Shown here: positions 1 through 9,062 of the stretch, piece by piece
Position numbering within the stretch: the first letter of the stretch is position 1
Layout: each line of letters opens with the position of its first letter
Assembly (NCBI GenBank): GCA_964248365.1
Contig: CAXTYC010000067.1
Span: 1-10,420 of the forward strand
From: an uncultured Chroococcidiopsis sp.
GTDB lineage: Bacteria > Cyanobacteriota > Cyanobacteriia > Cyanobacteriales > Chroococcidiopsidaceae
DNA length: 10,420 nt
Reading direction: 5' to 3'
Translations under genes and position numbers: made by a program
The notes under the pieces: generated by a model
Told to the model about the DNA's origin: nothing
The model's database searches: none
What the model saw: the letters and a program-made list of their open reading frames with translations, nothing else

Positions 1-506
1 GAGGTCGCGCGTTTTTCTTCGTTCCCTTGGTTGGATTGTTTCGTTCCGTTAGGTGGAACCAATTTAACCACTGGATTCCCTAGACTCATGTCACTGCTCA
101 ACCGATTAGCGTGACGGGAATAATGTTCCAGTAAAGTTGGGGTTTTGATGTTGTGCCTCCACTTCCTTGTAGGTTACTTTTCCAGGTTCTATTTTCACCG
201 TAGATACTTCCCATTAGCATGAGAGATTTGGGGGAGAATAATTCTTCCCCAAACTCTCTCGCCAGTGTCACCCCACAACGGATGTCTGATTGCGCCCAGC
301 TCCCAGCTTCGCTCTGCCGATTTCCCCGCAGGTACTCTGAGTCGGCTCGGCGTGGGCAGATAGGGGTTCACGTCTGAGTCTGACGGGTGGGACTTTCACC
401 CACATACAACCGAGAGTTCAACCTTTTAATGACAGTAATCTGCTGTCAGGTTGGGTAGCTTATGCTACGGGCTGATTACCGAGATTCGGCTACCAACGAA
501 TCGCAC
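1..506 (-). mobile_element. Group II intron (IIB/chloroplast-like type), 5' part (domain I); inner intron of a twintron; continues past the window's left edge
   Basis: Minus strand starts GTGCGATTCGTT at 506 (GUGYG 5' consensus), followed by stems GGTAGC..GCTACC and CAACCT..AGGTTG, the Ic motif GGGTGAAAGTCCC, an AACCTGGAAA Id-like motif and a candidate EBS1 hairpin at 55-79. No RT ORF or domain V is in the window. Confidence 0.9.
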
Positions 507-580
507 TAGTTGTCAAGGTTCAAACCTTGTGGGTAATCCTCCGCTCTTTTCAGAGCTAGTTTCTACCCAACGAACCGCAC
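507..580 (-). mobile_element. First 74 nt of a second (outer) group II intron, interrupted by the inner intron
   Basis: Minus strand GTGCGGTTCGTTGG at 580, nearly identical to the inner intron start, then GGGTAG..TTACCC and CAAGGT-TTGA-ACCTTG stems. It begins exactly where the nuclease-like protein sequence ends. Confidence 0.8.
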
Positions 581-1120
581 AAACCAATTTTTACCAACTT
601 CTAATGGACTGAATGAATTATTCCACTTCTTACTGTTTTTCCAGGTTTTAGCTTTGATATCCTCCACCACAAAAGCAGTAATGGGAAACATCTTGGCAAG
701 CCATTGGCAAATACGTAACTTCCACTGCCATCTAGCTTTTGTAGAGGGTGGTAGCTTCTGGGTATTAACTAATCTGTTGGCGCGATTTTGACGTAATGGA
801 GTTTTTCTAAATCGTCTAGCTCATCGCATATTACGGCGGGTTTGAACGGCATCTTTTACCCAATCAACCGCATGAAGAAGCAAGTTCAAGTAAGTATGGG
901 ATTGCGATTTCAAACTAATCGCCTCCCTTTTAGACCCACTATCAACCCCTGCCGCGATTGGTTGAATATTACGGTTTGATGGCTCTACATTTAGTCGAAC
1001 ACAAAATACTCCGCGTTTCCAAAATGGGGTAGCCTTACCCGACTTTATCCACCTTCTAGCTCTAGAAGGCGTTGTTGGCATCAGGGGACGTTGATTACTA
1101 TCGACAACTGGAACAAACAT
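581..1120 (-). pseudogene. isrB: IsrB/IscB-family OMEGA nuclease (RRXRR/PLMP), most like IsrB; premature stop and intron insertion
   Basis: PLMP motif (QRPLMPTTPSRARR), RuvC-I (AGVDSGSK), Arg-rich bridge helix broken by TGA at 823-821 (RRNMR*ARRFRKTP). The frame continues 80 codons: ...LPPSTKARWQWKLRICQWLAKMFPITAFVVEDIKAKT...SFSPLEVGKNWF, including the RuvC-II VVED motif. Confidence 0.85.
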
Positions 1121-1352
1121 TAAGATAAGTCCTATTTCTAGGTATGTACCTCCCTTCGCCTCTGGCTAACTCAGAAATACAAGACTTGGGAAGCATCCTG
1201 TATGTGATGCAGGACTGCCACGCCCAGTTAGCTCAGGTTACGTTTTCCGCACAGGCTAGACAACTATTTAGTCTTGTTGGAACTAATTGGCTTTTAGTTC
1301 TTCACAAGCCCCCGCTATATTGCTCGAATGCAATTAGCGGCGGGTAGTTGAC
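1121..1352 (-). ncRNA. omegaRNA (HEARO-like) scaffold and IS200/IS605 element end
   Basis: Minus strand starts GTCAACTACCC at 1352, then a CCGCTA..TAGCGG hairpin and GGGGCTTG, later GGATGCTTCCCAAGTC and GGCGAAGGGA motifs. About 230 nt directly upstream of the nuclease ATG, as in IscB/IsrB loci. Confidence 0.8.
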
Positions 1353-3363: not shown

Positions 3364-4566
3364 CTATTGTGAGCTTTGTTTCTTGAGTCTTGCCCTAGAT
3401 GGGGAAGCAGTTTTACGCCTATTGGTCGTCTTTGTGGCAGATTTACCCTTTGCTGGTGTCTTTGAATCCGGCTTGCCCTTTGCTGCTGGCTTTGAAGTAG
3501 CTTCTACTTCTGGTGACGCTTGGGGCATAGCTTCTGATTCTACTGTCGGTTGAGCAGCCGTTTCTGGCTCTAATGCCGGATTGGAGGTTGCCCCACCAGA
3601 GGGTTCTTCTTGGGCTTGAGTGTCCTCCTGTCGGTTTGGAGCTATTTTGGCAGGGAACTTGCGCGTTCCTTGTGTCTTTGAAGACGACTTGCGCTTTGCT
3701 GCTATTTTTGAAGTAGCATCTTCCTCTCCTGTTAGCTCAGAATTCGTTTGTGACTCTACTGGGGGTTGAGCAGTAGTTTCTGCCTCTGCTGATGGTAGAT
3801 CATCAGTTTCTATTTCTGCTATCGGGTCTAAAGTTTCCCTGCTCTGGGGTTCTTCTATTGCTTGATTACCTTTGTCTTGGCGCTGCTTTGTGGTTCTGGC
3901 AGCAGATTTATGCCTTGCTGGTATCTTGTCAGTAGATTTGCGCTTTGCTGCTGGTTTTAGCTTCGTTTTCGTCTGTGCTATTAGCTCAGGAGTTGTTTCT
4001 GGCTCTGCTAATGGTTGGGGCGTAATTTGTGCCTCTGCTGGTAGTAGATCCGCCTTTTTTGGCTCTAGTGTCTGGTTTGAAGTTGTTTGACTTTCAGGTT
4101 CTGCTGTTTGAGTTTGAGCTTGATTGTCCTGGTCTTGCTGCTTTGATGAATTAGAAGATTTATGCCGTGTTGTTTTTGAAGAAGATTTGCGCTTTGACGG
4201 AGGTGCGCTCTTAGTTTCACCTTGGGATTCAGGCGCTTGGGCTGGGGCTGAATGCACTTCTAGTGAGGACAATTCGACAGTAACTACACCTTTTGTTTGT
4301 GCTGTGACAAGAGCAACTACCATTTGATTTTGTGGGTTGTGCTGCGAAAACTCGAATTGCAAGGTAGGTAGCCCCATTTGTCTTGCATATCGCTTAATCT
4401 GGCTTGGCTTTAAAAACGAGGCTGACATTTGTGATACTTCCCCACTAGGGTAGTAATTCACCAACAATACTCCTGCTCCCCCGTCGGCAGACATTTCTCG
4501 GTAATAAGTACTCAGGCTGGGTAGGTCCCCGCTCAATAACTGCTTTAATTGTCCAGAAGAATCCAT
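3364..4566 (-). CDS. Hypothetical 400-aa protein: ~100-aa globular N-domain plus repetitive low-complexity tail
   Basis: Long open frame; tail rich in K/S/T/E/P/Q/A with recurring KRKS motifs. Confidence 0.8.
   Translation of the reverse strand: MDSSGQLKQLLSGDLPSLSTYYREMSADGGAGVLLVNYYPSGEVSQMSASFLKPSQIKRYARQMGLPTLQFEFSQHNPQNQMVVALVTAQTKGVVTVELSSLEVHSAPAQAPESQGETKSAPPSKRKSSSKTTRHKSSNSSKQQDQDNQAQTQTAEPESQTTSNQTLEPKKADLLPAEAQITPQPLAEPETTPELIAQTKTKLKPAAKRKSTDKIPARHKSAARTTKQRQDKGNQAIEEPQSRETLDPIAEIETDDLPSAEAETTAQPPVESQTNSELTGEEDATSKIAAKRKSSSKTQGTRKFPAKIAPNRQEDTQAQEEPSGGATSNPALEPETAAQPTVESEAMPQASPEVEATSKPAAKGKPDSKTPAKGKSATKTTNRRKTASPSRARLKKQSSQ
3440..4215 (-). repeat. Degenerate intragenic tandem repeat, 249-bp (83-aa) period
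   Basis: TTGCGCTTT anchors at 4187, 3938 and 3689 (249 apart) and variant TTGCCCTTT at 3473 (216 further). Repeat boundaries are approximate. Confidence 0.75.
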
Positions 4567-8199: not shown

Positions 8200-9062
8200 A
8201 TGACTGCTCAATCCCTGTTCAAATGGCGACACTTTCTGCCCGACATCATCTTGGTGAATGTGCGATGGTATTGTCGTTATGCTCTAAGTTAGCGAGATTT
8301 GGAACAAATGATGCAGGAGCCAGGAGTGGAAGTGGATCATTCCACCATAAATCGGTGGGTGTTGAAGTACGCGCTCCTATCTGGATAAGCGAATTCGACC
8401 CTATTTGAACTCGACAAATGATTCATGGAGGGTGGATGAAACTTATATCGAAATCAAAGGGAAGTGGAAATACCTGTACCCTTGCGGTGGATTCAGCCGG
8501 AAACACACAACCCTTCATGCTGAGTGCGAAACGGGATGGCAAAGCGGCGGAACGCTTTTTGCGCAAAGTCTTGGGAGCATCGCACACTCAAACGCCACGA
8601 GTGATCGCGGTGGATAAAAACGCTGCCTATCCCATCGCGCTCAAGAAACTCAAAAAAGACGAAACAAAGTTGAAAGTGGAGACACAATTACGGCAGAGCA
8701 AATATTTAAACAATATCATCGAGCAAGATCATCGGAACGTAAAGCGCATTGTGAACCTGATGATGGGATTTCAATCGTTCAACACGGCAAGGAGGACTTT
8801 GCGAGGAATTGAAGCAATGACTATGATCCGCAAAGGACAAGTGAAAGGAATCAACCAAGGGGACAGTGTATCTCAAGTTCGGAACGTAAAGCGCATTGTG
8901 AACCTGATGATGGGATTTCAATCGTTCAACACGGCAAGGAGGACTTTGCGAGGAATTGAAGCAATGACTATGATCCGCAAAGGACAAGTGAAAGGAATCA
9001 ACCAAGGGGACAGTGTATCTCAAGTGAAGTTTATCAACAAAATCTTTGGAGTTGTTGCTTAA
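8200..9062 (+). pseudogene. IS6-family DDE transposase pseudogene
   Basis: MTAQSLFKWRHF..VRWYCRYALS* (TAG 8290-8292) RDLEQMM..VDHSTINRWV; frameshifts near 8372 and 8480; WRVDETYI, AVDS, VDKNAAY and YLNNIIEQDHR motifs. Confidence 0.92.
8732..9025 (+). repeat. Perfect 147-bp tandem duplication (2 copies, in frame)
   Basis: 8732-8878 equals 8879-9025; the peptide RNVKRIVN...GDSVSQV occurs twice. Confidence 0.95.

Follow-up and report, generated by a model that had tools for sequence, protein, structure and literature searches.

A stack of three group II introns in an IsrB pseudogene of an uncultured Chroococcidiopsis sp.

Results

The locus and its genome

The window (the whole stretch of DNA analysed, 10,420 nucleotides) is the complete contig C67 of an assembly of 5.58 Mb in 102 contigs (G000, hereafter the own genome), from which contigs shorter than about 2.1 kb are absent. 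Its first 1,352 positions carry, on the minus strand, the left part of an IsrB element and a series of group II intron 5' ends. IsrB is a small RNA-guided DNA-nicking protein and a relative of Cas9. The features are the following.

1121..1352, minus strand: left end of the element and omega-RNA-like leader, beginning GTCAACTACCC at 1352
581..1120, minus strand: isrB exon 1, 180 codons (RRXRR protein, PF14239, E 1e-34)
821..823, minus strand: in-frame TGA within the bridge helix, at codon 100, where 105 of 111 motif-bearing homologues have Arg
507..580, minus strand: 5' 74 nt of group II intron A, between Phe180 and Tyr181 as read from empty isrB alleles
507..519, minus strand: target of intron B within intron A (IBS2, 519-514, ACCTTG; IBS1, 512-507, CAACTA)
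11..506, minus strand: group II intron B, full domain I (EBS2, 169-164; EBS1, 104-99)
217..260, strand not assigned: hairpin insert of about 42 nt in domain I of B, perfectly conserved in four B copies
1..10, minus strand: 5' end of group II intron C, directly after domain I of B; the contig ends here

No group I intron match was found anywhere in the window. The group II domain V/VI model matched 16 times in the own genome, 15 of these matches being above the cut-off, and several further intron-in-intron junctions exist there besides the nest described here. The far flank of the element was not reached by synteny comparison with five relatives. Elsewhere in the window lie a 400-aa ORF without Pfam match and with a long low-complexity, Lys/Ser/Glu-rich, repeat-like tail (3364-4566, minus strand), an IS6/IS240-type transposase (PF13610) in which about 47 codons are duplicated internally (8418-9062) and a MazE/MazF-type toxin-antitoxin pair (PF04014, PF02452; 9325-9893).

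The host gene is an isrB pseudogene

An initial annotation, made from the sequence alone, had placed here an omega-RNA-like leader followed by a PLMP/RuvC gene, and both lie where it put them, on the minus strand (a HEARO-like match, then the ORF 1120-581). The HEARO-like match (1352-1144) scores 26.1 bits with an E value of 0.036, below the gathering score of 83; scores of 24-36 bits, also under the gathering score, were obtained at the same place in 6 of 12 related loci. Two-sided changes were observed at 20 of the 62 consensus pairs of the leader, in an alignment of five sequences only. The left end is sharp at 1352 and common to four other loci with unrelated flanks, and related left ends are present in the own genome on C11 and at the ends of C30 and C80. 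The one on C11 (G000:C11:131472-131800) is a 100-nt fragment of the omega-RNA left end, followed at most 20 nt further on by the 5' part of a decayed group II intron. The right-end motif of the element was not found in the own-genome assembly.

Exon 1 encodes the PLMP motif, the RuvC-I Asp60, an Arg-rich bridge helix and the RuvC-II Glu153, and terminates in GKNWF. It is 86-90% identical to uninterrupted homologues of 337-350 aa, and the nearest named relatives in a protein homology search are cyanobacterial. One uninterrupted homologue (P0002) aligns contiguously to DtIsrB (8DMB, E 4e-37) without an HNH insert, which identifies the host gene as IsrB; the absence of HNH is read on these homologues, the part from RuvC-II to RuvC-III being missing from the window.

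The window's isrB copy is a dead pseudogene, since the stop at codon 100 would persist even after full splicing. It is also the only isrB ORF of the own-genome assembly, where the element is not shown to be multicopy as the initial annotation had supposed. An allele free of the TGA had been considered there as well; none with the same twintron was found. As for the nuclease exon expected beyond the contig end, neither isrB exon 2 (RuvC-III and C-terminal domain) nor the remainder of intron A was found in the own genome by tblastn, profile or blastn searches, and the assembly contains no 3' exon or right end, an absence that does not amount to proof of deletion because contigs shorter than about 2.1 kb are missing from it.

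Intron A interrupts isrB between two codons

The sequence GTGCGGTTCG begins at 580, directly after codon F (581). Matches to the uninterrupted alleles of two related genomes (G002 and G006) stop at query positions 820 and 819, that is at window positions 581 and 582, and these empty alleles read on through TTT|TAC (GKxWF|YNQL), so that intron A lies in phase 0 at 580. The end of protein similarity at codon F and the phase-0 intron in an IsrB element, both read from the sequence by the initial annotation, are thereby borne out. So is its assignment of 507-580 to an intron and not to nuclease coding sequence: positions 580-507 align with the 5' end of a family of RT-encoding group II introns, with 61-65 identical positions in six relatives, and a copy of intron A on contig C4 of the own genome reads past GACAACTA without an inner intron. 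This 5' end is present in 17 of 401 genomes. Translated, the 5' end of the window's intron A reads VRFVG followed by a stop.

Intron B lies in intron A and pairs with its site

A second intron start, GTGCGATTCG, is found at 506, 74 nt after that of intron A, just as annotated. The window's intron B is 80-84% identical to copies on C28, C95 and C37 of the own genome, the last of which has an RT ORF and domain V. Its EBS2 and EBS1 pair at 10 of 12 positions with the end of the 74 nt of intron A, a value that 0.28% of 300,000 random sites attain. With five A relatives, which have CAACTG at the homologous site, the pairing rises to 11 of 12. EBS positions and exons covary over the ten B copies compared, and in nine of these the own exon scores best; the sole exception is the copy at G000:C28:518-1, chimeric or ectopic, which pairs at 2 of 12 positions with its own exon. 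The host of this twintron is available empty at C4 and in the relatives of A, and both introns are on the same strand. A pattern for the A|B junction matched in 33 of 401 genomes, and among the 30 loci read none outside the window carries the junction.

The hairpin insert at 217-260 is known only from the four B copies of the own genome. It is identical in copies that are otherwise about 80% alike, which suggests gene conversion. Similar short hairpins occur in frame in the isrB of G006 (L019) and also in RT genes. The miRNA matches obtained at 208-268 were rejected, as they correspond to this hairpin insert of B and not to miRNAs.

A third intron and the reality of the nest

Positions 10-1 of the window are filled by GCGCGACCTC, the 5' end of a third intron (C), which starts GCGCG like its relatives. 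The same break after domain I of B is present at C28 and C95, C37 is uninterrupted there, and C68 holds the matching 3' junction; the relatives of the C68 3' end start with GCGCGACCT in five of the eight regions fetched. The B|C junction was not found among 40 relatives or in viral contigs, and the complete A+B+C arrangement was seen only in the window, in the same scan of A|B junctions. The nested group II twintron of the initial annotation thus stands as far as A and B are concerned; intron C had escaped it.

For each of A, B and C a GUGYG-like 5' end was found at a junction for which an empty allele exists, and the relatives of all three carry domain V/VI and RT-maturase ORFs, with 6ME0 as the nearest solved maturase in each case. 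These data confirm that the nest is real and consists of three stacked group II introns. Because none of the 3' ends of A, B and C is assignable to this locus and the assembly lacks exon 2, the nest may be truncated.

Stacked 5' ends at a contig edge could also be chimeric joins of repeats produced by the assembly. The contig does terminate in a repeat common to C28 and C95, one of these (C28) holds the B copy that scores poorly on its own exon, and the reads of the strain were not found (the runs contained at most 6% of the words, in pieces of other organisms). Against such an artefact, the EBS of B fit the preceding A sequence, which a misjoin would not yield; the isrB|A join combines an exact codon boundary with an exact intron 5' end; and the B|C join has its matching 3' join at C68. 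We regard an assembly artefact as extremely improbable.

No recurrence found at the Phe180|Tyr181 site

We looked for other introns at the window's codon junction. A pattern for it matched 14 times (five genome, six metagenome and three viral matches), and none of the 14 joins isrB to an intron; one was discarded as an intact isrB in which the VR codons are natural. The intron-derived tail was found in none of 104 longer motif-bearing homologues (best 120 of 2445) and in none of 89 such homologues of similar length (best 120 of 724), and among the close homologues listed none terminates at residue 180. The initial annotation had proposed that group II introns may target OMEGA elements repeatedly. 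The idea is not supported for this codon; it is supported at the level of the lineage, with insertions in tnpB, in an omega-RNA and in isrB three codons upstream, as described below.

Targets of the A lineage

We fetched 30 of the 34 matches to intron A; after removal of the window and of two matches without exon, 27 sites with a readable exon were left. Seven lie in intron RT ORFs, five in tnpB, one in an IsrB omega-RNA, one in a LAGLIDADG ORF, eight in simple repeats and five in other genes. IS200/IS605 nuclease elements (tnpB or IsrB omega-RNA) therefore host 6 of these 27 other sites, one of the five tnpB assignments resting on likeness to the exon of a neighbour. Judging from these target sequences, the A lineage does seem to favour OMEGA elements. 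A-lineage introns proliferate in GGGTGT-type simple repeats (L102-L104, L112, L113, L117, L119, L121), with nine matches in G229.

A recurrent intron site in a sister IsrB subfamily

A sister IsrB subfamily contains an intron site after VMVGQ, nine bases (three codons) upstream of the window's site. At least ten protein clusters of this subfamily end, at this one shared site, in the translated 5' end of the intron; the DNA was seen for one of them (G314, below), and the other nine of the ten are known from the protein tail. The ending VMVG[QL]-VRFVG was present in 8 of the 76 motif-bearing proteins of one library (best 120 of 630, with the G314 exon as query) and in 2 of 12 more from a second one (best 150 of 1248), and the first proportion overstates the frequency because both queries included the tail and one of the searches left out proteins longer than 350 aa. 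The eight tailed proteins are 52-83% identical and scattered among intact genes. On a tree of 70 rows, built quickly and without bootstrap after rows lacking the motif or shorter than 140 aa had been left out, intron presence requires 7 changes (shuffled mean 7.7), at least three of which are forced by well-supported branches; repeated intron loss would give an equal scatter. The site appears to be a recurrent homing site for related introns. Two other IsrB-like proteins (P0359 and P0525) carry the VRFVG tail elsewhere, after ..GNG and after the RuvC-I motif, respectively, and are probable further intron sites.

The G314 element (G314:C117) contains two complete introns:

L208:939-3470: complete intron in the omega-RNA
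L208:4152-6660: complete intron in the isrB ORF

A 2.5-kb intron containing an intact RT-maturase-HNH ORF interrupts its leader; the flanks of this intron are contiguous in three other loci. Exon 1 of isrB ends in VMVGL, at a site that aligns three codons upstream of the window's site, and is followed by the second intron and by an open, in-phase exon 2. The EBS of the G314 intron pair at 10, 12 and 10 of 12 positions with the unoccupied site of three other isrB genes. From its sequence G314 is the best candidate for a splicing-dependent OMEGA system, in which guide scaffold and nickase would both require splicing. A pattern search of 23 genomes gave a real hot-spot junction only in G314, the matches in G163 and in the viral locus L233 being rejected as chance; four cyanobacterial-type isrB loci in viral contigs, as well as plasmid matches, have no intron at the hot spot. 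The intron site in the G314 omega-RNA gave 16 matches in 15 of 401 genomes, of which only the G314 one is real, and none in viral contigs.

Another arrangement was found in G074 (G074:C31):

L207:2136-4476: C-type intron with an intact RT-HNH ORF, five bases before the isrB start codon

The intron separates the ribosome-binding site from the start codon, and the isrB that follows is intact (379 aa).

Discussion

Origin of the nest

We consider it probable that the nest arose by three rounds of EBS-directed group II retrohoming into what would be a non-autonomous IsrB (ISC1) element, A entering the isrB ORF, B the domain I of A, and C entering B. As part of the same probable reading, A would be a member of a IIB-type lineage of cyanobacteria which readily changes its target and builds up in other mobile DNA, and the window's site would be a one-off retargeting to a position next to the hot spot. 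Retrohoming of IIB introns by EBS-guided reverse splicing is described as established in the accessible part of PMC2882425. Four junctions, their empty alleles and the pairing of B with its site are observed directly; the outer-to-inner order is what we infer from them, and A would likewise have arrived by EBS pairing, its own EBS lying beyond the contig end. Mobile targets such as intron RT genes, tnpB and isrB may suit such introns, as an insertion there would be cheap for the host and new copies of the target would keep appearing. By analogy with the twintron partly described in PMC4649490, removal would require splicing of C, then of B, then of A, an order that is moot in the window in view of the stop at codon 100.

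An unlikely alternative is a chance pile-up, in which introns gather in any transcribed, dispensable DNA of an intron-infested genome, isrB is not special and the window is debris. The Phe180|Tyr181 site has no recurrence in any of our searches, including the ends of the listed close homologues, the A|B junction is confined to 1 of 401 genomes, the window's gene has a stop and the A-lineage targets are diverse, all of which speak for chance. Against it stand one junction common to ten protein clusters, the EBS of G314 that match the conserved codons of that site, and the IS200/IS605 nuclease elements among the A-lineage targets (6 of 27). For the window's own site the pile-up account is nevertheless largely right.

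At the opposite extreme, the intron-bearing IsrB would be a functional composite that moves and persists as a unit, the window being a decayed member: splicing would restore the omega-RNA and the mRNA, TnpA in trans would move the element and IsrB nicking would copy it back, as a group II counterpart of the IStron. The two complete introns of G314, one with an intact RT-maturase-HNH ORF, its open and in-phase isrB exons, the intact G074 intron upstream of an intact isrB start codon and three strong Y1 transposase matches in the own genome are in line with this scheme. Yet no intron-bearing element was seen twice at different sites, the omega-RNA site is occupied in 1 of 401 genomes, the window copy is dead and the introns are internal to the element instead of at its ends, and we judge the scheme very unlikely. 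It is likewise unlikely, if a little less remote, that a group II intron lineage is specialised on OMEGA elements, that intron-bearing IsrB elements are active, make omega-RNA and nickase mRNA only once spliced and carry the introns to new sites, and that RT-HNH introns, by landing repeatedly close to the HNH linker, are a living model of the gain of HNH that turned IsrB into IscB and Cas9. Retrohoming in three rounds remains the reading that we prefer.

Significance

Taken alone, the window is a dead nest of known parts, and the wider isrB pattern matters more. A recurrent intron site in isrB stands next to the linker whose place is taken in IscB and Cas9 by the HNH domain. An origin of HNH from a group II intron was proposed in PMC4810608, which in its available part gives TnpB examples only; the isrB hot spot and the G314 candidate make this proposal testable, together with the idea that introns ride on, or regulate, RNA-guided transposon nucleases. 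The hot spot corresponds to DtIsrB 181|182, a few positions beyond the HNH linker, residues 161-174 of which were deleted according to the portion of PMC9581776 at hand. A direct HNH-capture reading is weakened, as both intron sites follow the G-K/G-Q motif and the HNH of HfmIscB precedes it (in a weak alignment); being located after the G-K motif, both sites are neighbours of the HNH position and not identical to it. Finally, short RRXRR proteins ending in VRFVG should be read as intron-split genes and not as truncations.

Comparison with known systems

Published work, as far as the accessible parts of the sources go, already documents multi-level nests and the site-specific homing of group II introns into TnpB, and it raises the vehicle question for the latter. 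For introns in isrB or its omega-RNA no paper was found in a search of the open literature, and the available text of PMC10055086 and PMC7923331 has nothing on introns in isrB.

The closest precedent is Coleofasciculus chthonoplastes, whose group II introns home site-specifically into the TnpB of IS605/IS605B (Kapitonov et al. 2016, PMC4810608, supplement Fig. S9), a source that in its accessible part also raises independent homing versus composite transposition for TnpB. Both cases involve RT-HNH group II introns between codons of an IS200/IS605 nuclease gene in cyanobacteria, and the A-lineage intron L099 occupies the same EQQ|NC tnpB site as that reported in the supplement. Unlike there, the target here is isrB with its omega-RNA and not tnpB, the isrB hot spot adjoins the HNH linker and the window adds two nested introns.

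Nests of group II introns up to five deep are on record in the accessible text of PMC4424553. Those of Methanosarcina acetivorans and Thermosynechococcus elongatus (PMC4424553, PMC2882425) lie, in the parts of these papers available, without a flanking coding ORF or within an intron ORF, whereas in the window the gene of an RNA-guided nuclease is the outer host and the two inner introns interrupt ribozyme sequence. The Trichodesmium erythraeum twintron T.e.I7/T.e.I8 shares with ours a cyanobacterial protein gene as host; there, by the available part of PMC4649490, the inner intron begins about 150 nt inside the outer one, splicing was demonstrated and is sequential, and the host gene is intact, whereas the window's host has a stop and the stack has three levels.

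The protein and its leader resemble the DtIsrB-omega-RNA complex (PDB 8DMB; PMC9581776, as far as accessible) in the PLMP motif, the split RuvC, the bridge helix, the lack of HNH as read on the homologues and a leader RNA that is putatively structured; the window's gene differs in being broken, with the interruption at DtIsrB position 184|185. IStrons, finally, also combine an intron and an IS200/IS605 or IS607 nuclease element in one locus. According to the available part of PMC13565253 their introns are of group I and use the transposon ends as splice sites, so that the whole element splices from the host gene. Identity with an IStron was rejected for the window, where the introns are of group II and internal to the element and no group I match exists. 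Altogether, the window's nest probably works like the TnpB homing of Coleofasciculus and the nested introns of Methanosarcina, and unlike an IStron.
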